A stretch of DNA of 64,000 nt, from NCBI GenBank assembly GCA_035527535.1, contig DATLAK010000182.1, positions 2,439 through 66,438 of the forward strand. Direction: 5' to 3'. The notes beneath the pieces are model-generated. The model was given only the letters and a program-made list of their open reading frames with translations. It did not search any database and was not told the origin of the DNA. Position 1 is the first letter of the stretch. Each line of letters begins with the position of its first letter. Positions 2,474 through 52,219 of the stretch are shown piece after piece. Made by a program: the position numbers and the translations under genes. This stretch comes from Armatimonadota bacterium (GTDB lineage: Bacteria; Armatimonadota; Hebobacteria; GCA-020354555; CP070648).

Positions 2474-2767
2474 GCTAGCAGACCTCCTGTGCCTCTGTCT
2501 GACGGCAGGGGGAATTCGGGGGATATACACCATGATTTCCTAACCAGCGGGCAGCTCTTACTTCTTTCTCGGCCCCCTCGGCCCCGGTTTGCCGCGCTGA
2601 GTGACGTGATGCGTCACCCCTGGCGGGACGATACGGGCGATGCGGGGCAGGACCCACTTGTACCACTGTCTGTGCTTCCGGTCAATAATCAGGTTGCGTG
2701 TCCCCGGAATGCCCGCTGAGGGAATCCCCCCTCGCCGCCGGGTCTCAGCGGGAAGCTGTCCCCGTCT

Positions 2768-3607
2768 TTACTCCCCAATCCGCCGCAGGGCTTCGACGAC
2801 CTCGTGAATCAGCCACTCGGGGGTGGAGGCGCCGGCGGTGACGCCGGTCTTGCGGGCCCCCCGGAACCACTGCGGGTCGAGCTCGGCGGCGGTCTCGACG
2901 TGGTGGGTGGGGACGCCCGTCTGCTCGCACAACTGGCTCAGGCGGTTGGTGTTGGCGCTGTTCTTGCCGCCGACGACGACCATGACCTCCACCTGCTGCG
3001 CCAGGCGCAGCGCCGACTCCTGGCGCTGGGAGGTCGCGCCGCAGATGGTGTTGAAGGCGCGCAGCTCGCGCGCTCTCACCGCCAGCGCCGCGGCCACCGC
3101 GCCCAGCCGCGCCGGCGCCTGGGTGGTCTGCACCACCAGTCCCACCCGCGGCCGGAGCTCTATCCCCGCCAGCTCATCCTCGTGCTCGATGACCACCGCC
3201 TGCCCGCCGGCGGCCCCCACCAGGCCCGCGACCTCGGGGTGCCCCTTGTCGCCGAGGATGATGACCTGGTAGCCCCCGTCGGCCAGCGCCCGCACGTGAT
3301 CCTGCGCTCGCGCCACGAACGGGCAGGTGGCGTCCGCTACATGCAGGCCGCGCTCGCGCGCCTGCCGCGAAACCTCCGGGCCCACCCCGTGGGAGGGGAT
3401 GACGACGGTGCCGCCGGCGACCTCGTCCAGGGATGACACCTGGCGCACTCCCTCCTGGCGCAGGCGCTCCACGACCTGGGGATTGTGGATCAGCGAGCCG
3501 AGCGTGTGCAGGGGGCGTGGGCCGGCCTCCTCCTCCCCCTTGACCATGTCGAGCGCGCGCTCGACGCCGAAGCAAAAACCCGCGTTGTCGGCGACGATGA
3601 TCTCCAC
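2768..3607 (-). CDS. ispH: 4-hydroxy-3-methylbut-2-enyl diphosphate reductase
   Basis: N-terminal IIVADNAGFCFGVERA and overall LytB/IspH architecture with conserved Cys positions. Confidence 0.9.
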   Translation of the reverse strand: MEIIVADNAGFCFGVERALDMVKGEEEAGPRPLHTLGSLIHNPQVVERLRQEGVRQVSSLDEVAGGTVVIPSHGVGPEVSRQARERGLHVADATCPFVARAQDHVRALADGGYQVIILGDKGHPEVAGLVGAAGGQAVVIEHEDELAGIELRPRVGLVVQTTQAPARLGAVAAALAVRARELRAFNTICGATSQRQESALRLAQQVEVMVVVGGKNSANTNRLSQLCEQTGVPTHHVETAAELDPQWFRGARKTGVTAGASTPEWLIHEVVEALRRIGE

Positions 3608-3619
3608 TTCGCCCTCATT

Positions 3620-4714
3620 TCATGCCAGCGAGGCGATGACGCTCGCCCAGGCGTTCTCCCAGCGTTCGCGCGAGAAGGTCCGGCGCACCTGCTCCCGCTG
3701 GCGCGCGCCGATCTCCGCGCGCTGTTCGTACACCCGCGCCATCGCCTGCGCCAGGCTCGCCGCGTGGGGTGCGCAGTGCTCGGTCGGCAGGTCCGCCAGC
3801 CCGCCGATGTCGGTCGAGAGAGTGGCGGCGCCGCAGGCCATCGCCTCCAGCGCCGACAGGGAGGTGCCCTCGCCCGCGACGGAGGGGATGACGACCATTT
3901 CGGCCGAGGCGTAAACGGCGGGCATGTCGGCGTGAGCGACCGACCCCCAGAACAGGACCTCGTCGCGCAAGTCGAGCTCGCGCACCAGGCGCCGCAGCCA
4001 GCGCGCGTAATCCCGTCGGCTGGGCGCGCCGACGACGACCAGCCGCGCCCCAGGGTGCACCCGCCGGAAGCGGGCGAAGGCGGCGATGGCGAGATGCGCG
4101 CCGCGGTTGAAGTAGAGGTTGCGGGGTACCACTATCGGGCGCAGCGTCCGCAGCTTATCCCATCCCCGGTTGGGGCGAAAGCGCTCGGTGTCCACGCAGT
4201 TGGGGATGAACCAGCGCCCCGGCGCCACCTGCTCGAAGAAACGATCGCCCGGCGCGACCTCGAGGCCCATCTCGCGCAGGAAGGCGCTGTCATTGGCGAC
4301 GAAGGCGGCGCAGCGGCGGAAGGCGGCGCGCGCCAACGCGCGCTTGACGCGGCTGCGCAGCGCCCCCGGGCGGTCGTCCCAGGTCACGCCATGGGAGAGG
4401 CCGACGACACGTGTGCGCCCTCCGACCAGAGCTGCCGCCAGCGCATAGACCGGGTAGTGGGCGATGACCGCGTCCTGGGCGCGGATGACGGCGACCCGCG
4501 CCGCCAGGCCCAGGAGGTGGGTCCAGAACTCCGCCGGCAGGCCGCGCAAAGGGTTCGGCGCCGGCACGAACCACGGCGCATCAGCGCTCGACGCGCGGGC
4601 GATGACAAGCTGGCGATGCCCGCGCGCGGCCAGGGCGCGGCGCAGGTTCTCGACATAGACGTCGCCGCCGCCGACCAGGGGCAGGTAGGTGTATGTGATG
4701 TGCGCCAGGCGCAT
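3620..4714 (-). CDS. glycosyltransferase family 4 (GT-B)
   Basis: C-terminal GEGTSLSALEAMACG (E-x7-E) motif; start moved to MRLAHITYTY (ORF M167) giving ATGA overlap with upstream GT2 stop at 4714. Confidence 0.7.
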   Translation of the reverse strand: MRLAHITYTYLPLVGGGDVYVENLRRALAARGHRQLVIARASSADAPWFVPAPNPLRGLPAEFWTHLLGLAARVAVIRAQDAVIAHYPVYALAAALVGGRTRVVGLSHGVTWDDRPGALRSRVKRALARAAFRRCAAFVANDSAFLREMGLEVAPGDRFFEQVAPGRWFIPNCVDTERFRPNRGWDKLRTLRPIVVPRNLYFNRGAHLAIAAFARFRRVHPGARLVVVGAPSRRDYARWLRRLVRELDLRDEVLFWGSVAHADMPAVYASAEMVVIPSVAGEGTSLSALEAMACGAATLSTDIGGLADLPTEHCAPHAASLAQAMARVYEQRAEIGARQREQVRRTFSRERWENAWASVIASLA

Positions 4715-5745
4715 CAGTGGCTCGCACTCCGGACCTGCGGGGCGCGCCCCAACGCCGCCAGCGCGAGGCGCTGCCCGATGCCGATGGTATAGCCGCAGAG
4801 ATGGGCGAGGTCCACGATCCCCATCGCCAGCGGCGCCAGCAGGGCGGTACCCGGGCCCGCGCCACGTCGGCGGGCGCGCCGGGCGAGCCGCGCCCCATAG
4901 AGGAGCGCGAGGGCCGGGAGCGCCCACAGCGCCGCTCGGTTCGCCCCCATGCCCAGCGCGATGATCGCCGCCGCCACCACCAGCTCCAGGTACGCCTTGC
5001 CGTAATGCGCGAACCACAGGCCGGACAACCCGTCGCCCCGGGCGAAGCGATAGAACTGTCGAAACAAGCGCGCCGGGCGCCCCTGTGGCCGCCAGCGCAC
5101 GACCGCCCGCGGCGCGAACGCGAACTTCATGCCCGCGCGCCGCAGCGCGACGTCGAAGACGGTGTCCTCGTTGTAGGGCGTCCACTCCGGATACCCGCCC
5201 ACCCGCTCCCACGCCGCGCGCCGAAAAGCGATGGAGCGGCTGGAGGGCAGGAAGGTCTCGGGGTCCACCTCCGCCGCCGCCGGCACCAGGGCGGCCGCCG
5301 CCGCGCGTTCCAACGTCGTGCGCGGCGCGGCCTCGTAGTAGCCGGCGACGACGTCAATATCGTCCTGCTCTTCCAGCGGTCGCACGATGGTCACCAGCCA
5401 TTCGGGATCGAGCACACACCCCGCGTCAACGCAGGCGATGACGGGCTCGTCGCCGACGGCAATGGCCGCGTTGCGCCCGCGCGAGCGATTGGCCCCGGGC
5501 AGGACGAGCACCGTCAGCGGCAAGCGGTCCTGGTAGCGGCGCGCGAGGTCGGCGGTGACGTCGGTGGAGCCCCCGTCGGCGACGACCACGCGTTCGGGCC
5601 GTCGCGTCTGCGCCTGGATGGAGTCCATGAGCTCGGCGATGCCCTCCGCCTCCTGGCGCACGGTGGTGATCAGGCAGACGCGGCTCACGCCGGCAGCCCC
5701 CGGCCGCGGTAGAGGTCGAGGTAGAGCGCTGCGACTCGCGCCCAC
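4714..5745 (-). CDS. glycosyltransferase family 2 with C-terminal TM segment (polyprenyl-phosphate sugar synthase-like)
   Basis: CLITTV...VVVADGGSTD...DAG GT-A motifs plus hydrophobic C-terminus; true start probably downstream of 5745 (overlaps next gene by 60 nt). Confidence 0.65.
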   Translation of the reverse strand: MGASRSALPRPLPRPGAAGVSRVCLITTVRQEAEGIAELMDSIQAQTRRPERVVVADGGSTDVTADLARRYQDRLPLTVLVLPGANRSRGRNAAIAVGDEPVIACVDAGCVLDPEWLVTIVRPLEEQDDIDVVAGYYEAAPRTTLERAAAAALVPAAAEVDPETFLPSSRSIAFRRAAWERVGGYPEWTPYNEDTVFDVALRRAGMKFAFAPRAVVRWRPQGRPARLFRQFYRFARGDGLSGLWFAHYGKAYLELVVAAAIIALGMGANRAALWALPALALLYGARLARRARRRGAGPGTALLAPLAMGIVDLAHLCGYTIGIGQRLALAALGRAPQVRSASH

Positions 5746-6719
5746 GTCTGCGCGCGGGCGTAGGCCTCGGCGGCGTCCAGGCCGGCGCTGGACGCTTCCG
5801 GCTGCTCCAGGTGGCGCGCGATGGCGGCGGCGAGGCGGTCGGGCTCATCGGCGGCGACCATGTGGGATGACGCCGGGAACAGCTCGAGGTAATCGCGCTT
5901 CAACGGGTTGTCGTAGAGCGCGCAGGCGAGGCGGCGATAGGCCATCGCCTCGAGGATGGTGAGATAGCCGGAGACGAAGGCGAAGCGGCAGCCCTCCAGA
6001 AACGGCCCGACCTCGCGCGTCCAGCCCTGCACGGCGACGCTGACTCCCGCCATCCGCGCGGCGCTCAGCACCGTGTCGCGCAGCGGCCCGTCGCCGCAGA
6101 TGACGAGCGGGAGGTCGTGCCCGCGTTCGCGCAGCCGGCGCAGGGTCTCGACGTATCGCATGATGCCGGTGTCGGGGGCGAGGCGGCCGACGTAGAGCGC
6201 GGGCGCCTGGGGCGGGGGATCAGGGACGCGCGCGGGCGGGGAATCAACGCCGCCGTACGATACCAGGTCGCACCTGTGGCCGTACCAGCGGGGTATGAAC
6301 TCGCCCATGCAGATGGTCGCCGCCGCGCGCGCGGCCAGACGCCGCCGCAGCCAGCGGGCGGTGCGACGCAGGGGATAGCCCTCGTAGCCGTGAAAGGTCA
6401 CGAACAGCGGCGGCCGCGGCCCGGGCCAGGCGGGGGCGATGAAGCGCAGGTAGGAGTAGAGGTCGTGGCAGTGAATGACCTGCGCGCGGTTCAGCACGTC
6501 GAGCTGGCGGTCGCACACCGCTTTCGCCATCCCCCCGGGGACGCGGCGCACGTGGATGCCGATGAGGTCCTCGTCCCGCGGCCACCCCGGCTTCCACAGG
6601 CGCGTCAGCACCGTGACCGCGTGCCCGAGGCGCGTCAGCTCCTCGCTCACGCGCAGGACGTGCTTCTCGACGCCGCCCAGCCGCGGAGCGAAGTGGGGGG
6701 TGATCATCAGCACGTTCAC
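5685..6719 (-). CDS. glycosyltransferase family 4
   Basis: MNVLMITPHFAPRLGGVEKHV N-terminus typical of GT4/RfaB-like GT-B enzymes. Confidence 0.7.
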   Translation of the reverse strand: MNVLMITPHFAPRLGGVEKHVLRVSEELTRLGHAVTVLTRLWKPGWPRDEDLIGIHVRRVPGGMAKAVCDRQLDVLNRAQVIHCHDLYSYLRFIAPAWPGPRPPLFVTFHGYEGYPLRRTARWLRRRLAARAAATICMGEFIPRWYGHRCDLVSYGGVDSPPARVPDPPPQAPALYVGRLAPDTGIMRYVETLRRLRERGHDLPLVICGDGPLRDTVLSAARMAGVSVAVQGWTREVGPFLEGCRFAFVSGYLTILEAMAYRRLACALYDNPLKRDYLELFPASSHMVAADEPDRLAAAIARHLEQPEASSAGLDAAEAYARAQTWARVAALYLDLYRGRGLPA

Positions 6720-8243: not shown

Positions 8244-9854
8244 CTACTCCGGAACCAGGCGCAAGAGCGCGGCCTGCGGACGCACGAATACCGCCTCGAA
8301 GTCACTCGCGGCGCCGGGGTTGAAAACCCCCAGCGCCCGTTCATACTCTGTGTAGAGCACGAAGCGCAAGCCGTTGTCCGCCATCAGCTCTCGGCGCTGC
8401 GAGGGCGAGGCGGCCGCGGAGAAGAACCACACGACCTGCTTCAGCTTGCGCGGGTAGTGCAGGGTCTCGTCCCAGTGCCCGACGAAGACTGTGTTGCCTG
8501 CGACGCCGGGGAGGTAGCTGCCCTCCAGCGACGCGCACATCACCCCCTGCTCCATGCGCGTGTTCTCGCGCAGCCAGGTCATCGCCTGCACCGCGTCGGC
8601 GCGCAGGTAGAGGGGCGGCATCAGCACCCGCAGGTAGGCGCGGTTATTGGTCATCAGGTCGCGCGCGCCCCGCGCCATGAAGAACACGTTCGACGGGCAG
8701 GCGGCGGCCACCAACAGCACCGCCAAGGCCAGGGCCGCCGACCGCGACATGCGCGGAGCCGCCCATTCGCCGACAAACGACGCGGCCAGCAGGCACAGCG
8801 GTATGTGCACCCCCTCCGCCAGCTTGCGCTGAAACGATACCGGCGTCAAGAACACGAGCAGGAAGGTCACCACCGCCCATATCACCGGCAGCGCCTGCGG
8901 CGCGCTGCGCCCGCGCAGAGCCGTCATCGCCCCGGGGATGGCGAACGCCAGCACCAGCCCGAAGCCGGCCGCAAAGTGCGCCAGGGGCGGCGTCAGCTTC
9001 TGCGTCACGGCCTTGTCGTGGAAGACCACATTGGTCTGGAACACCCAGTACTGGTAGGCGACGAAGGGCGCCGCCATGACCGCGATCAGCGCCGCGAACT
9101 TCATCTCGCGCAGCGGCATCCGGCGGCCGATAATCCCCGCCGCGACCACGTACACGGCAAGCGTCAGCCACGCCGGGAACACGTCGTAGGTGTGGACGTT
9201 GCCCAGCATCAGCGCCGCCGCACCCCCCAGCGCCGCCAGCCTCCACGAGTCGGCGCGCACCGCCGCCAGGTAGGCGGCCCACATCGCCACCAGCAGCGCC
9301 ACCGAGCAGGCGAACATCGGGTTGAGCAGGAGCGTGAGAAAAGTGATGGCCTCGGGCATGATCAGGCGCGGCCCGTAGTCAATCGGGTGCACGGTGGCAC
9401 CGGGGGCGGCCAGCGCGTAGAGCCAGCCCAGGCCCGACGAGAACGCCGCGAACGCCCACGCCAGCCGGCGCGTGAACCGCCGCTCGCATAGCTGCGCCGC
9501 CAGCGCGTACACCGCAACCAGCAGGAGCGCGCCGCAGATGACGCGGGCGAGGTGATAGACCCAGATCGGCGGGATATGAGTTCCGCGGGCCGCCAACCCC
9601 AAGGCCAGGAAGAAGCCGAGGAAGAAGCGCGCCGGCTGCGGCTCTGTGGTGAAGGGGTCGTGGAACAGCAGCTCCCCGCGCAGCACCTGGCGCATCCACC
9701 CCAGATAGACATTGTGCTCGTCGGGATTGGCGAGCAAGCCCATGTAGTGGTAGCCGGGGGGGGTGATGAACCAGCCGAAGAGGTAGGGCAGGCACGTCAA
9801 CCCCATCACCGCGAGCGAGGCCCAGAGCGCCCAGCGCCACTCGTCGCGGGTCAT
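8244..9854 (-). CDS. polytopic integral membrane protein, putative GT-C glycosyltransferase
   Basis: First loop carries ANPDEHN (DE motif as in GT-C enzymes); start moved to MTRDEW because first 40 ORF codons are read through an intergenic palindromic repeat. Confidence 0.5.
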   Translation of the reverse strand: MTRDEWRWALWASLAVMGLTCLPYLFGWFITPPGYHYMGLLANPDEHNVYLGWMRQVLRGELLFHDPFTTEPQPARFFLGFFLALGLAARGTHIPPIWVYHLARVICGALLLVAVYALAAQLCERRFTRRLAWAFAAFSSGLGWLYALAAPGATVHPIDYGPRLIMPEAITFLTLLLNPMFACSVALLVAMWAAYLAAVRADSWRLAALGGAAALMLGNVHTYDVFPAWLTLAVYVVAAGIIGRRMPLREMKFAALIAVMAAPFVAYQYWVFQTNVVFHDKAVTQKLTPPLAHFAAGFGLVLAFAIPGAMTALRGRSAPQALPVIWAVVTFLLVFLTPVSFQRKLAEGVHIPLCLLAASFVGEWAAPRMSRSAALALAVLLVAAACPSNVFFMARGARDLMTNNRAYLRVLMPPLYLRADAVQAMTWLRENTRMEQGVMCASLEGSYLPGVAGNTVFVGHWDETLHYPRKLKQVVWFFSAAASPSQRRELMADNGLRFVLYTEYERALGVFNPGAASDFEAVFVRPQAALLRLVPE

Positions 9855-9893
9855 GGCGCCCGCGCGCGCGGCCTGCTCGCCGGCCCCGTTCAC

Positions 9894-9970
9894 GGGTCGG
9901 CAGGGGACGGTTCCTTCCCGCCCCGGGCCTGGGCGCTGCCCTGGGCGACGGGGAACTGTCCCCTCGCGCC
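9894..9970. repeat. palindromic intergenic repeat family A, copy 1 (GGGGACGGTTCC...GGAACTGTCCCC)
   Basis: About 90% identical to 21384-21461; 12-bp arms around a ~40-nt loop. Confidence 0.8.
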
Positions 9971-9973
9971 CCA

Positions 9974-11635
9974 TTAGTGGTACACCTCCACGCGCGGCCA
10001 GGTGTAGAGCCAGTCGGGAGGGCAGGTGAGCTTCGCGGGCCGCAGGGCCGGCATCGGGGGCGCATGCTCGAAGGTCTCGAGCCGGTCGTAGCGTTTGGGC
10101 AGCTCCGCCATCAGCGCCGCGGGATCCGACTGCCCCAGCCGCAGCAGATCCGCATATTCCGTATCACTGACGACGAAGAAGTCGGAGCGCGCCCGCCGCA
10201 GCGCCGCCGCGTCCCAGCCGGTGACGATGACGCGATACGGCGGCTTCTCGCGCTGCCACCGGTGGAACTCCTCGGCGCTGCGCAGCCCGCCGTTGAAGGG
10301 GGTTAGGGGCGGGGTGAAATACCAGGGCGTGGAGGCGAGCCCGATGCGGGTGCGGGGCGCAGCCCGCGCCTGCAGCCACTCGGCGGCGCGGGTGCGCGGA
10401 TCGGCCGCGGTCATGGTGCCCACCATCTGCCCCGCGTACCAGGTGGTGCCAGCCAACACCGCCAGGCCCAGCACCGCCGGGGAGACGGCCCCCTTCCAGG
10501 CGGCGAGCGCGGGTGGAGTCGCCAATCGCAGGCGCTCCAGCGCATAGCCGCCCGCGATCACCAGCACCGGCAGCAAGGGCAAGCTGTAGCGCAGGAACCG
10601 CTCCTTGCCCGCGCCGATGACAAAGAAGTAGGGCAGGGCGAAGCTCAGCAGCACCATCGCCACTCCGGAGCCTGTCCCGAGCGAAGTCGAGGGGCCGCGC
10701 CGCAGCATGAGCCCGGCTCCCACCAGCCCCAGGAGCAGCGCCGGATAGCCCATGCCCGCCGGCAGGGCGCGCAGCAGATGGTAGAGCCAACCGTTGCCGG
10801 TGGCGGCGAAGGCCGGCGTGCCGCCGATGCGCATGTGCTGCAACTCGAAGTGCAGGTCGCGCAGGAAATCGGGGTTGAGGTGAAGCCCGTCGTCCCCCAG
10901 GAGCAGCAGGAAGGGCGTCACCGCCCAAAAAGCCAGGGCGGCGGCGGCGAGGCCGGCGATCGGCATCAGCAGGGAGGGGGCGTAGCCCTGCTCATCTCGC
11001 GCGAAGAGGTGGGCGAACAGCAGCGGCACCAACCCCAGGATCATCGTGTACTTGGCGGCCGTCGCCAGCCCCAGCGCGAGCCCGGCGACCAGGTAGATGG
11101 CGAGGTCCGCCATCCCGAACAGGCGCGGCAGCACGGCCAGCAGCAGCACGATCAGGAAGGTGGCGAGAACATCCACGGTCGCGTAGTGGGAGTTGACCAC
11201 GTGCGCGGGGAGCACCGCCAGCAGCGCCGCCGAACCCAGGCCGACCGGCGGCCCGCCGAGGTCCTTGCCGATGACGTACACCAAGTACACGGTGCCCACG
11301 CCCAGCAGCGCGGTCAGCGACCGGGCGAGCAAGTGCAGCTCGGTCCAGCCGCCTTCGGGCAGCGGCACCAAGCCCAGGAGGGCGCCGAACTTGGCGCAGA
11401 CGGCGACAAGGTAGATGTAGAAAGTGCCGTAGTTGTAGAAGTGTGGATCCCAGTCGCCGGTGTTGAGCATGTACCATACGGGGCCGAGCAGAGGGGCTTC
11501 GTCGGGGTGGTAGGAGAACAGGTGCGCTGCGCTCGGCAGCCCCCAGCGCAGCCCGGCGAAACGCAGCCCCATCGCCGCCAGCATGACCGCCGCGAGGCAG
11601 GCCCTCTCGATGCGCTCGACTTGGTAGGGCTTCAC
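9974..11635 (-). CDS. GT-C glycosyltransferase, ArnT/PMT (family 39)-like
   Basis: YHPDEAPLL first-loop DE motif, FYNYGTFYIYL, multi-TM N-terminal half and soluble C-terminal domain. Confidence 0.6.
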   Translation of the reverse strand: MKPYQVERIERACLAAVMLAAMGLRFAGLRWGLPSAAHLFSYHPDEAPLLGPVWYMLNTGDWDPHFYNYGTFYIYLVAVCAKFGALLGLVPLPEGGWTELHLLARSLTALLGVGTVYLVYVIGKDLGGPPVGLGSAALLAVLPAHVVNSHYATVDVLATFLIVLLLAVLPRLFGMADLAIYLVAGLALGLATAAKYTMILGLVPLLFAHLFARDEQGYAPSLLMPIAGLAAAALAFWAVTPFLLLLGDDGLHLNPDFLRDLHFELQHMRIGGTPAFAATGNGWLYHLLRALPAGMGYPALLLGLVGAGLMLRRGPSTSLGTGSGVAMVLLSFALPYFFVIGAGKERFLRYSLPLLPVLVIAGGYALERLRLATPPALAAWKGAVSPAVLGLAVLAGTTWYAGQMVGTMTAADPRTRAAEWLQARAAPRTRIGLASTPWYFTPPLTPFNGGLRSAEEFHRWQREKPPYRVIVTGWDAAALRRARSDFFVVSDTEYADLLRLGQSDPAALMAELPKRYDRLETFEHAPPMPALRPAKLTCPPDWLYTWPRVEVYH

Positions 11636-21383: not shown

Positions 21384-21461
21384 GGGTCCGGCAGGGGACA
21401 GTTCCTTCCCGCCCCGGGCGTCGGCGGTGCGCTGGGCGACGGGGAACTGTCCCCTCGCGCC
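21384..21461. repeat. palindromic intergenic repeat family A, copy 2 (GGGGACAGTTCC...GGAACTGTCCCC) in the def-fmt spacer
   Basis: Near-identical to 9894-9970; begins 4 nt upstream of fmt ATG. Confidence 0.8.
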
Positions 21462-21478
21462 GACCCGAGGCCTGGTTC

Positions 21479-22036
21479 CTACCTGCGAGAGGCCATGTGC
21501 GCCTCGAACACCTTGAGCGCGTCCTCCAGCGTCGTTGGCACGCGCTGGGACTCGTCATCGTGCTGGGCGTCGCCCAGCGCCCAATAGAGGGTGTCGGGAT
21601 CAACGCGGTCCACGAACAGCACCCCCTGGAGGTGATCTATCTCGTGCTGCAGCACGCGCGCCAGCAGGTCCTCGGCCTCGCTGGTGACGGCGCGACCCTG
21701 GAGGTCGCGGCCGCTGACCACCGCGCGCTCGGCGCGCTGCACTTGTCCGTATAGCCGCGGGAGGCTCAGGCATCCCTCGACCGACGCCTGCTCGCCCTCG
21801 CTCTTCGCCACGCGGGGGTTGATCAGCACCTGCGGCCCGTCTCCGATGTCATAGGCGATGACGCACAGACCGGCCCCGATCTGGGGGGCCGCCAACCCCA
21901 GCCCCCCCGCGCGCTCGAGGGTGCTCGTCAGGCGCGCGGCGAGGTCGGCGATCTCGGCGTCGAGCTTGGCCACCGGCGCGGCCTTGCGCCGCAGCACGGA
22001 ATGACCGTAATGCAGGATGTCGTCGCTGGCGGACAT
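21479..22036 (-). CDS. def: peptide deformylase
   Basis: GxGxAAxQ, EGCLS, QHEIDHL metal-binding motifs. Confidence 0.9.
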   Translation of the reverse strand: MSASDDILHYGHSVLRRKAAPVAKLDAEIADLAARLTSTLERAGGLGLAAPQIGAGLCVIAYDIGDGPQVLINPRVAKSEGEQASVEGCLSLPRLYGQVQRAERAVVSGRDLQGRAVTSEAEDLLARVLQHEIDHLQGVLFVDRVDPDTLYWALGDAQHDDESQRVPTTLEDALKVFEAHMASRR

Positions 22037-23829: not shown

Positions 23830-26307
23830 TCACGTCAGCGACACGGGATCCATGTCCACCGTAACCGAGACGTCCTTAGGCGGGCGTTCGTGGTCGAGGG
23901 CGCGCACCAGGGCGGCGCGGATGGGCTCTGCCTCTGCTGCCCGTAGCAGCAAGTGCCAGCGGTGCTTGCCGCGCACCTTGGCCAGGGGCGCGGAGGCAGG
24001 GCCGAGGACGGTCAGGCCGGGAGCGGCACCGGTTTCTCCGAGGGTACAGTCCATCATTTTCCCGGAAGAAAATGGGGACAGTCCCTGCGGTGCCAGTCCC
24101 ACGGCGCGGGCGAGCGCCTCGGCGTAGGCCCGCGCGGCGCCCTCGCTGGGCGCGCTTACCACCACGTTGCACAGATAACCGAAGGGCGGATACCCGTGCT
24201 CCCGGCGCGCCTCCGATTCCTCGGCGAAGAAGGCCTCGTAGTCGTGGCGGCGGGAGGCGGTGACGGCGTAGTGTTCGGGGGCGTAGGTCTGGATCACCAC
24301 CCGGCCGGGGCGGTCGCCGCGGCCGCAACGCCCGGCGACCTGCGCCAGGAGCTGGAAGGTGCGCTCGCCGGCGCGCAGGTCGGGCAGGTTGAGGCCGACA
24401 TCGGCGCACAGCACGCCCACCAGCGTCACCCCCGGGAAGTGGAAGCCCTTGGTCACCATCTGCGTGCCGACCAGGACGTCGGCGTCGGCGCGGCGGAAGT
24501 CCTCGACGATGCGCACGTGCGCCCCTTTGCGGGTGGTGGTGTCGCGGTCCATGCGGGTGGGACGCGCCCGGGGCAGCCGGCGCCGCAGCTCCTGCTCGAC
24601 GCGCTCGGTGCCCCAGCCCGCGAACTGGATGTTGGCGCCGCCGCACTTGCCGCAGGTGGTGGGGGGGGTCTCGCTCAGGCCGCAGTGGTGGCACTCGACG
24701 GTGCGCGCGGCGCGATGGAAGATGAGGGCGACATCGCAGTGGGGGCAGCGCAGGGCGGTGCCGCACTCGGGGCACAGCACGATGGTGGCATAGCCGCGGC
24801 GGTTGAGGAAGAGGATGATCTGCTCGCCGGCGTCGAGCGCCTGCTTCATCAGGTAGATCAGGCGCGGGGTGAAGATGGACTGCCGCACCCCGCGCAGGTC
24901 CGCCACCTCCACCGCCGGCGGCGGGCGCTCGCCGATGCGGGTGGGCAGCGCCAGCAGGGTGTAGTCGCCGGCGCGGGCGCGGTGGAAGGACTCGAGGCTG
25001 GGGGTGGCGCTCGCCAGCACCACCGCGGCGCCCGCCAGTCGCGCGCGCTCGATGGCGGTGTCGCGCGCGTGATAACGCGGCGGGAAATCCTGCTTGTACG
25101 ACGGATCGTGCTCTTCGTCGAGGACGATCAGCCCCAGGTCGGGGCAGGGTGCGAACAGCGCCGAGCGCGCGCCGATGACGACCTGGGCCTCGCCGGCGTG
25201 GATGCGCCGCCACTCGCCGCCGCGCTCGCCCGGGCCGAGCGCGCTGTGCAGCACCGCCACCCGCGCGCCAAAGCGCCCGCGGAAGATGCCGACCGCCTGC
25301 GCGGTGAGGGCGATCTCGGGCATGAGGATGACGGCCTGCCGCCCCCGCGCCAGCGCGCGCTCGGCCGCGCGCACGAAGACCTCGGTCTTGCCGCTGGCGG
25401 TCACGCCATAGAGCAGAAACGTTTCCGCGCGCCGGGCCTCGATTGCAGCCGCGATGCGCTCCACCGCCGACTCCTGCTCGGTGGTGAGGCGCGCAGGGAG
25501 GTCTCCCACCAGCTCGGCCTCCGCCCAGGGCGCGCGGAGCAGGGGGCTGCTGAACACGCGCACCAACCCCTTGGCCGCCAGGCCGCGCACGGCGCCGACG
25601 CCGGTGCCGGCCCGCCGCGCCAGGTGGCGAATGTCAACCGGTTCACCTGCCGCCAGCAGTTGTTCGAGCACCAGCGCCTGCTTGGGGGCGCGCCGGCGCA
25701 GCGCTGCCGCCGCCCGGCGCACCTCGGGCGCCGGGTGCACCAGCTCCGCCATCTGCGCCGCCAGCGTTCGCCCCGCCACGATGCGCGCGTCCACCGCGAT
25801 CACCCCGCTCGCCCGCAACCGGCGCACGGCCGCCACCCCGGCCTCGCGCTCCAGGCGGCGCACCGAGGTCTCGCCCCCCTCCTCGCGCAGGAGGCGCACG
25901 GCGCAGGCGCACTCCGGGTGCTGACGGCAGAGGTCGCGCGCGGTTTCCGAGTCAGCGCTCACCGCCAGCCGCGCGCGGCGCGCCAGGCGGGGACTTCCCG
26001 GCGGCATCACCGGCTGCAGCGCCTCGCCCAGGGGGCACAGGTAGTATTCGCTCATCCATCGCGCGAGGCGAACCAGCGGCGCGGGCAGCGTCGGCGCCTC
26101 GCGCAGAAGTTGCTGCACCGGCTTGAGGTCGCTGACTTGGGGCGCGCTGTGCAGGCGCACCACGAACCCCGGCACCATGCGCGCCCCCAGCGGCACCACC
26201 ACCTGGCCGCCTTCGCTGATGCGTGACGCCAGCTCCGGCGGCACGGCATAGGTGAAGACCTGATCGAAGGGCCTTCCGGGATTCGGAAGCACGTCGGCGC
26301 AGTACAT
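23830..26307 (-). CDS. priA: primosomal protein N' (replication restart helicase)
   Basis: Walker A GVTASGKT, DEEH box, CxxC...CxxC zinc-binding insertion (CPECGTALRCPHCD, CHHCG). Confidence 0.85.
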   Translation of the reverse strand: MYCADVLPNPGRPFDQVFTYAVPPELASRISEGGQVVVPLGARMVPGFVVRLHSAPQVSDLKPVQQLLREAPTLPAPLVRLARWMSEYYLCPLGEALQPVMPPGSPRLARRARLAVSADSETARDLCRQHPECACAVRLLREEGGETSVRRLEREAGVAAVRRLRASGVIAVDARIVAGRTLAAQMAELVHPAPEVRRAAAALRRRAPKQALVLEQLLAAGEPVDIRHLARRAGTGVGAVRGLAAKGLVRVFSSPLLRAPWAEAELVGDLPARLTTEQESAVERIAAAIEARRAETFLLYGVTASGKTEVFVRAAERALARGRQAVILMPEIALTAQAVGIFRGRFGARVAVLHSALGPGERGGEWRRIHAGEAQVVIGARSALFAPCPDLGLIVLDEEHDPSYKQDFPPRYHARDTAIERARLAGAAVVLASATPSLESFHRARAGDYTLLALPTRIGERPPPAVEVADLRGVRQSIFTPRLIYLMKQALDAGEQIILFLNRRGYATIVLCPECGTALRCPHCDVALIFHRAARTVECHHCGLSETPPTTCGKCGGANIQFAGWGTERVEQELRRRLPRARPTRMDRDTTTRKGAHVRIVEDFRRADADVLVGTQMVTKGFHFPGVTLVGVLCADVGLNLPDLRAGERTFQLLAQVAGRCGRGDRPGRVVIQTYAPEHYAVTASRRHDYEAFFAEESEARREHGYPPFGYLCNVVVSAPSEGAARAYAEALARAVGLAPQGLSPFSSGKMMDCTLGETGAAPGLTVLGPASAPLAKVRGKHRWHLLLRAAEAEPIRAALVRALDHERPPKDVSVTVDMDPVSLT

Positions 26308-52144: not shown

Positions 52145-52219
52145 TGGTGGGCCCGGCAGGATTCGAACCTGCGACCAACCGGTTATGAGCCGGGGGCTCT
52201 GCCGCTGAGCTACGGGCCC
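52145..52219 (-). tRNA. tRNA-Met (anticodon CAU; could also be tRNA-Ile2 lysidine type)
   Basis: Cloverleaf folded by hand: 7-bp acceptor GGGCCCG/CGGGCCC, GTTCGAATC T-loop, anticodon loop CUCAUAA, encoded CCA; G1-C72 so not initiator. Confidence 0.8.

Follow-up and report, generated by a model that had tools for sequence, protein, structure and literature searches.

Intergenic repeat doublets in an Armatimonadota genome as probable members of a family of inverted-repeat units associated with TIRYT-type transposases

Tyrosine transposases flanked by terminal inverted repeats (TIRs) were described under the name TIRYT by Di Nocera et al. (2013; PMC3733652), who called the gene together with its TIRs a TIRtron. 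TIRYT genes are RAYT-like and are flanked by TIRs in place of GTAG REPs; the TIRs have the common motif GGGGWSAS, some of them are self-complementary, and "moderately abundant" families of TIRs can be single, dimeric, or clustered (PMC3733652). According to Quentin et al. (2018; PMC6006769), TIRYTs constitute subclass 2.1 of TnpA-Y1, which is characterized by the motifs NHVH, FQ/WE, and Y..NP, a C-terminal helix-turn-helix, and a median length of 238 aa; no REP-like sequences were seen beside subclass 2.1 genes. The TIRtron enzymes correspond to RAYT Group 1, in which the flanking 16-mers have only ~12 genome-wide copies, and RAYT genes are usually single-copy (Bertels et al., 2017; PMC5581495). 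No biochemical test of any TIRYT is described in PMC3733652 or PMC6006769, and our literature search for RAYTs in Firmicutes returned nothing useful. Among the RAYTs, Group 1 (subclass 2.1) is both the largest group and the most widely distributed, yet little has been described of its DNA partners.

The DNA analyzed here is a 64,000-nt stretch of an Armatimonadota genome, referred to as the window. A repeat search found a pair of 73-nt segments (9898-9970 and 21389-21461) that form its longest two-copy direct repeat. A first-pass annotation, made from the sequence alone, had reported two near-identical palindromic copies at these places with ~90% identity; both copies are present and their high similarity holds, with a measured identity of 93%. 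Copy 1 (9894-9971, no strand assigned) consists of a left arm, a box, an inner stem, an inverted box, and a right arm, and is located in the spacer from the stop of a gene for a PMT-like glycosyltransferase (9974-11635, minus strand) to the gene that follows (ATG 9854). Its 12-nt box GGGGACGGTTCC is located at 9903-9914 (plus strand), and its inverted 12-nt box at 9952-9963 (minus strand; read as GGAACTGTCCCC on the plus strand and GGGGACAGTTCC on the minus strand). Copy 2 (21385-21462, no strand assigned) falls between the stop codon of def (TAG, 21479-21481) and the start codon of fmt (ATG, 21380). It has the 12-nt box GGGGACAGTTCC, which matches the published motif GGGGWSAS, at 21394-21405 (plus strand) and the inverted 12-nt box at 21443-21454 (minus strand), such that the arms are GGGGACGGTTCC and GGAACTGTCCCC in copy 1 and GGGGACAGTTCC and GGAACTGTCCCC in copy 2.

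Pfam searches of the flanking genes returned Pep_deformylase, Formyl_trans_N/C, and PMT/PMT_2, with no match for the 536-aa protein encoded after the PMT-like gene. Both copies occupy intercistronic spacers on the minus strand (PMT-like gene to next gene, and def to fmt), which agrees with the operon-internal placement given in the first-pass annotation. The further claim that each copy lies a few nucleotides upstream of a start codon is accurate for copy 2, which ends 8-13 nt from the fmt ATG (21380), but not for copy 1, which is 44 nt from ATG 9854 (the start conserved in relatives) and close only to the in-frame GTG 9893 (5-9 nt). Similarly, the peptide MGREGTVPRRPGQRPGPGREGTVPCRP (GREGTVP) does form a spurious extension of ORF 8244-9974, but of this single ORF rather than of two; copy 2 reads otherwise in the fmt frame.

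Each copy is a long imperfect palindrome, in which the 12-nt arms GGGGAC(G/A)GTTCC and GGAACTGTCCCC are complementary and the pairing extends inward and slightly outward. The inverted repeats in the copies are 35 nt (74% complementary) and 27 nt (78%) long with 9 nt between, and the ~40-nt loop proposed previously is not a free loop, since the 37 nt between the arms pair further. Predicted folding gave a very stable hairpin, with minimum free energies of -76.5 and -59.6 kcal/mol (z-scores of -2.0 and -3.0 against shuffles). A hairpin of this stability just 5' of a start codon in two operons, with no obvious Shine-Dalgarno sequence between copy 2 and fmt and the sole SD-like GGAAGGA contained within the stem, is compatible with a structured RNA selected by the host. 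Such an RNA would be an intercistronic leader or processing site that controls how fmt and the gene behind the PMT-like gene are translated, e.g., by masking or unmasking the ribosome-binding region or by placing the stop codon close to the start codon. This reading has to accommodate the C-A mismatch that copy 1 has in its transcribed strand, and no Rfam family reached its gathering score at copy 2 (E up to 10) or matched at ten loci; within the window, the sole gathering-level match is a tRNA gene (52148-52219, minus strand). There is also no U run 3' of the window hairpins, and a scan for terminators around both copies returned no terminator-like site.

Sister metagenomes were scanned with the boxes plus the first six bases of the inner arm of the window subfamily, and five further distinct loci were found, which gives seven distinct copies together with the window pair. 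All seven measure exactly 61 nt from box to box, and their flanks are unrelated to one another; the fmt gene of the window was matched as the same gene only on metagenome contigs. A simple local duplication in the 64-kb region without a wider family, which the first-pass annotation had linked to the existence of only two copies genome-wide, agrees with the window, where only two copies are seen. With at least seven distinct copies in the source population, five of them from sister metagenomes, and at least 120 loci in other genomes (described below), the probability of this explanation is negligible.

These seven copies and the syntenic relatives also bear on the structured-RNA reading. The paired columns are essentially invariant, and the sole two-sided change, at one outermost pair of 25, is nonetheless disrupted in three copies, which leaves no covariation signal of use; the other variable positions lie near the tip, where the changes break pairs. 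No compensatory changes were found among the seven copies (n = 7). Relatives with 67-70% Fmt identity have the same gene order (def, fmt, ... YfhO, PMT, next gene), but the element is absent from both of their spacers, which are 42 and 55 nt long. Both copies thus arrived in the def-fmt and PMT-next-gene spacers after the split from the known relatives.

Two other features of these populations were observed. In L137 (8385-8500), a window-type copy separates, in frame, an upstream ATG from a GTG at the start of a predicted membrane helix, such that an ORF caller would yield a false N-terminal extension there. In Armatimonadota relatives (L130, 17670-17735 and 18287-18353; also L131), there is a different repeat with the order GGGGACNGTCCCC, ATTGAG...CTCATA, and GGGGACNGTCCCC, the box of which is a perfect 13-nt palindrome, and a lone GGGGACAGTCCC is found at 24074-24085 of the window. 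This palindromic-box repeat of L130 and L131 may be a sister family.

To survey the family more widely, one genome per species was scanned with the pattern GGGGACNGTTCC, a gap of 25-55 nt, and GGAACNGTCCCC. At least 120 loci matched, from ~72 assemblies in six phyla among the matches listed, whereas roughly 2 matches would be expected by chance (a rough figure: 596 Gb on two strands with 31 gap lengths, over 4^22). Among the matches listed, the exact 12-nt block is present in Actinomycetota, Bacillota, Cyanobacteriota, Bacteroidota, Pseudomonadota, and Elusimicrobiota; counting the Armatimonadota source, in which the copies have the A variant at box position 7, the family extends to at least seven phyla. 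The hosts listed include Propionibacteriales, Micrococcales, Coriobacteriia, Bifidobacteriaceae, many Clostridia, Thermoanaerobacter, Neobacillus, Halomicronema, Bacteroidales, gamma- and alphaproteobacterial genomes, and one Elusimicrobiota genome. A phage-borne element was considered and rejected, as the pattern matched just three viral contigs. The box strings returned only primers and unrelated matches in a full-text literature search and were absent from the supplements of two REP survey papers.

Within the listed loci, 394 boxes are exact and 61 have one mismatch (5 expected), and boxes with two mismatches are at the level of shuffled sequence. The free position of the pattern is G in 95% of units. 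The commonest box elsewhere is GGGGACGG, with G where GGGGWSAS has A (position 7), and the Firmicutes box ends in T (GGGGACGGTTCT). Outside this near-invariant box, the arms are lineage-specific; a position-frequency table of 409 units gave a weak overall consensus of approximately GAACGGAAA-box-TTTYCCGNTC. Pairing at eight or more of 10 positions is found for the inner stem in 71% of elements and for the outer flanks in 47%, and a flank also pairs at this level with its adjacent inner arm in 33-41% of elements (control, ~4-6% in each case). The latter pairing places the box in the loop of a hairpin.

The family occurs as singles (L018), dimers (the window and most loci), and clusters (L006, L051, L087, and L118). 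Single units, such as CAGACAAG-box-TTTTGTCTG in a Thermoanaerobacter genome, are found in either orientation inside one co-directional row of genes. In nested arrays (+ + + followed by - - -), extra left boxes are in the plus orientation in 48 of 58 cases and extra right boxes in the minus orientation in 47 of 53, and the conserved sequence often reaches beyond the boxes. The same intergenic site is occupied in two rumen Clostridia (L053, 7180-7236; L109, 4450-4498) with flanks that are 85% identical, and the two doublets differ in all four arms in concert (GAGAT vs. GGAAT). The 3' end of guaA is occupied in three Propionibacteriales genera (L011, 1394-1451; L012, 1454-1576; L077, 6358-6415) by elements with genus-specific arms at unequal distances from the stop codon. 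The two comparisons point to repeated insertion or homogenization, not passive inheritance.

A crude count of gene contexts gave 59 co-directional, 45 convergent, and 13 divergent clusters, with a further 24 located inside a stop-to-stop ORF and 30 at the locus edge, and the elements usually lie 10-40 nt past a stop codon. This distribution would suit a terminator, an attenuator, or a stabilizer of mRNA 3' ends that had spread through benefit to the host, and stabilization of upstream mRNA is known for both REPs and MITEs (PMC3733652). We consider this explanation unlikely: the window hairpins have neither a U run nor a hit in the terminator scan, the downstream genes of both operons (fmt and the gene for the 536-aa protein) must be expressed, and an effect of this kind would be secondary to the mode of spread rather than an alternative to it. 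The context count bears on the structured-RNA reading as well. Copies that follow convergent genes, the 13 clusters between divergent genes, and single units in both orientations within one co-directional row are hard to reconcile with an intercistronic leader, as are the near-invariant stems, the lack of an Rfam match, and the empty spacers of the relatives. The "structured leader" half of the first-pass annotation is therefore not upheld, and a host-selected structured RNA appears quite improbable. We regard the element as a selfish passenger that sits between genes rather than as a leader with a regulatory role.

Among the neighbors of the at least 120 loci, no recurrent transposase was found; the recurring neighbors belong to common housekeeping families such as ABC ATPases, response regulators, LacI, and GuaA. 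An acetamidase/formamidase gene lies between two doublets in Neobacillus (L071, 3742-5259), and a homologue in Halomicronema (L003, 2136-3629) is followed by one doublet; this enzyme was considered as a partner of the repeats and set aside as coincidence or co-transfer. It was inspection of the genes bracketed by arrays, unlike neighbor clustering, that found a Y1 gene. In Propionicimonas (L116), an ORF of 261 aa (5612-6394) lies between the boxes 5487+/5533+ and 6592-/6615-/6662-. Its product matches Pfam Y1_Tnp (E = 1.9e-11) and scores 63 bits against NCBIfam REP_Tyr_transpos ("REP-associated tyrosine transposase"), which is under the 80-bit cut-off. A homologue in Thermoanaerobacter (L018, ORF 3626-4429), 35% identical to the L116 protein (E = 2e-46, tblastn), sits exactly between the single units 3579+ and 4467-. 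A profile search returned more than 4,000 relatives, which are called "transposase" or "RayT" where the source gives names, and their taxa overlap with the carriers of the box (Propionicimonas, Micropruina, Syntrophomonadaceae, Desulforudis, and Herbivorax).

All eight genes examined (L116, L018, L139, L140, L142, L143, L144, and L145) are bracketed in the same manner, with a plus unit upstream of the gene and a minus unit directly past its stop codon. The distance from the upstream unit to the ATG is ~40-65 nt in most Firmicutes loci, ~90 nt in L145, and 140-220 nt in Micropruina. Alignment of the proteins, which have lengths of 261 and 267 aa, shows the motifs SNHVHL, LFQDRF, and YVWDNP or YIHQNP, and there are weak C-terminal matches to helix-turn-helix families (HTH_23, HTH_19, and Sigma70_r4). 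In BLASTP comparisons, identity to the published TIRYTs (aba_2776 and dau_2153) is 34-38%, with 38% (E = 1e-27) in one comparison and 34% (E = 3e-30) in another, and identity to the E. coli RAYT is 22% (E = 1e-7). The eight bracketed genes belong to the "YHVLLRG" subgroup of TIRYTs. In the actinobacterial TIRtrons (L139 and L116), tandem units of box plus arm lack a complementary left arm, which means that the arrangement with the box in a hairpin loop is not universal.

The right arm of the upstream unit merges into a -35-like TTGACA in L144 (~1135-1200) and into CTTGACT in L143 (~1435-1500), and in both loci this -35-like element is ~17-18 nt ahead of a TATAAT. Given the C-terminal helix-turn-helix of the product, this layout raises the possibility that the upstream unit of Firmicutes may double as an operator for the transposase gene. 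Many TIRYT homologues are found on contigs of ~0.9-1.5 kb, the gene itself being 0.78 kb; short contigs of this kind would result if the assembly broke at high-copy repeats flanking the gene on either side.

The doublet resembles two terminal inverted repeats with a short interior, and the inverted repeats of the Tn3 family likewise begin with GGGG. A classical MITE, i.e., a deletion derivative of a DDE insertion sequence with terminal inverted repeats that start with GGGG, is thus conceivable but very improbable. No recurrent DDE transposase is present near the at least 120 loci, the genes that the units bracket are Y1/HUH, and the conservation often extends outside the boxes. In addition, no flanking direct repeat or target-site duplication was found at the seven window-type copies, which is a weak test without an empty site at close range.

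The window itself carries a trace of a TIRYT gene 7 kb from copy 1. At 2591-2650 (minus strand), the first 20 codons of a TIRYT-type Y1 transposase (LPRIARIVPPGVTHHVTQRG) are preserved, with a CTG start in place of ATG; in tblastn, this remnant shares 80% identity with residues 1-20 of the published TIRYT pca_3049 (E = 1.5e-5), and its similarity to transposases stops at approximately codon 21. Upstream of it, box-like motifs are found at 2696-2763 (minus strand), namely GGGGACAGCTTCC at 2751-2763, a palindrome CGCTGAG...CTCAGCG, and GGGGACAC at 2698-2705. The latter is 48 nt ahead of the start of the remnant; the placement is matched in an intact relative, the TIRtron of L147 (Desulfuromonadales), with GGGGACACTTCCC 51 nt before the ATG. 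On the minus strand, the region begins directly past the stop of ORF 2768-3607, presumably an ispH-like gene. On these similarities, 2591-2763 is recognizable as a decayed left end of a TIRtron, and it ties the source genome to the TIRYT system.

The remnant belongs to the "HHVTQRGN" subgroup of TIRYTs, which has boxes of the type GGGGACAC (as in L147) and differs from the subgroup of the eight bracketed genes; the cognate pairing for the GGGGACAGTTCC variant of the window is consequently indirect. A search of the window and of 13 other contigs of the organism and its relatives (L121-L123 and L127-L138) turned up no intact TIRYT gene. A second TIRYT fragment suspected at 240-407 of the window was discarded as a noise match, as this region belongs to an SAM methyltransferase. 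In L147, a tandem partial duplicate of the gene's own promoter region and first ~55 codons (MPRIARIIASHYPHHITQRGNNR...) is present upstream of the intact gene (540-800).

Taken together, we consider it probable (roughly 80%) that the window copies are non-autonomous, REPIN-like doublets of TIRtron TIR units that were spread by a TIRYT-type transposase. A unit comprises the 12-nt box GGGGAC(G/A)GTTCC and an arm of ~10 nt, with two inverted units joining as one long hairpin, and a TIRtron is the gene for an IS200-like Y1/HUH transposase of the TIRYT type (RAYT subclass 2.1) between outward-facing box units. IS200/IS605 TnpA and E. coli TnpA-REP act on folded single-stranded DNA, as established by biochemistry. 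By analogy with these enzymes, we infer that the TIRYT-type transposase would bind a folded unit on single-stranded DNA and would cut and rejoin it nearby, and that this chemistry could copy or move units and doublets into new intergenic sites. In this scheme, the box would be invariant because the enzyme reads it, and the arms would need only to pair and would therefore drift and become genome-specific; an invariant box next to arms that merely pair fits recognition of the box combined with a structural requirement for the stem. In the window, the side effect is a very stable hairpin in two polycistronic mRNAs, and any effect of this hairpin on mRNA stability or on the translation of fmt is conjecture.

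For annotation, the consequence is that two spurious N-terminal extensions are removed and that two odd spacers are explained as selfish repeats instead of regulators. A broader proposal, to which we give slightly less than even odds, is that the box-plus-arm units are the missing cognate repeats of RAYT Group 1 (subclass 2.1) and drive high-copy, REPIN-like populations in at least seven phyla. If so, the enzyme would read sequence in or beside the hairpin loop, unlike E. coli TnpA-REP with its reading of the GTAG foot, and the genome-specific arms at orthologous sites would reflect frequent re-insertion or homogenization. The proposal would also account for the many TIRYT genes on metagenome contigs of ~1 kb, and a 12-nt signature that locates the partners in Actinomycetota, Clostridia, cyanobacteria, and candidate phyla would render the system testable.

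When compared with known systems, the window family is closest to the TIRs of TIRtrons. Like these, it flanks a TIRYT-type Y1 gene in inverted orientation (eight of eight loci; the window holds only the 20-codon remnant) and is dispersed as singles, dimers, and clusters, and the enzyme is likewise a Y1/HUH protein of ~260 aa with NHVH, FQ, Y..NP, and a C-terminal helix-turn-helix. The motif GGGGWSAS is fitted exactly by GGGGACAG (copy 2, and the minus strand of copy 1) and by GGGGACAC of the remnant, whereas the commonest box GGGGACGG departs from it at position 7. Published TIRtrons are mostly from Proteobacteria and Acidobacteria, while the 12-nt block GGGGAC(G/A)GTTCC described here is found across phyla; unlike published TIRs, the box is often located in the loop of a short hairpin and the units form nested arrays.

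REPs and REPINs with their RAYTs (E. coli and Pseudomonas, GTAG-tagged) are similar in being short extragenic palindromes with inverted doublets that fold into one long hairpin, and, as in REPtrons, the units flank a Y1 transposase gene and are mostly positioned downstream of genes. The GT[AG]G tag at the hairpin foot is absent here (in the 409-unit table and in both window copies); instead, the conserved part is a 12-nt block in or beside the hairpin, and the enzyme is only 22% identical to the E. coli RAYT. The CGTC-tagged REPs (Di Nocera et al., 2013) are also small palindromes, mostly in head-to-head dimers, and CGTC occurs within the inverted box of the window family. In those REPs, the tag is at the foot of an 8-9 bp stem that starts with AT, with a 4-5 nt loop, a CCA tail, and no transposase, whereas in the window family CGTC is internal to the box with CCC after it, the arms do not consistently begin with AT, and the box strings are not in the supplements. 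Integron attC sites resemble the element in their conserved inverted ends, variable self-complementary center, and location past gene stops, but here there is no RYYYAAC/GTTRRRY core and no cassette array or integrase, and the neighbors are housekeeping genes. Together with attC sites, DNA uptake sequences, CsrA sites, group II intron domain V, ECF sigma promoters, and KOPS were dropped as having no matching anatomy.

The element is thus of a kind that is already known, being a new member, in a new phylum, of the repeat families associated with TIRYTs and RAYTs. What goes beyond the published accounts is that the 12-nt box is common to several phyla, that genes of the subclass 2.1 type are consistently bracketed, and that the arrays are nested, for which the evidence consists of eight loci and one scan of at least 120 loci. 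The window element is not filed with the canonical GTAG REPs, the CGTC REPs, attC sites, terminators, or MITEs derived from DDE insertion sequences. The "REP/MITE-like" half of the first-pass annotation, which had no name for the feature, is borne out, and we file the element as a putative REPIN-like doublet of TIRYT-type (TIRYT/RAYT-type) inverted-repeat TIR units.
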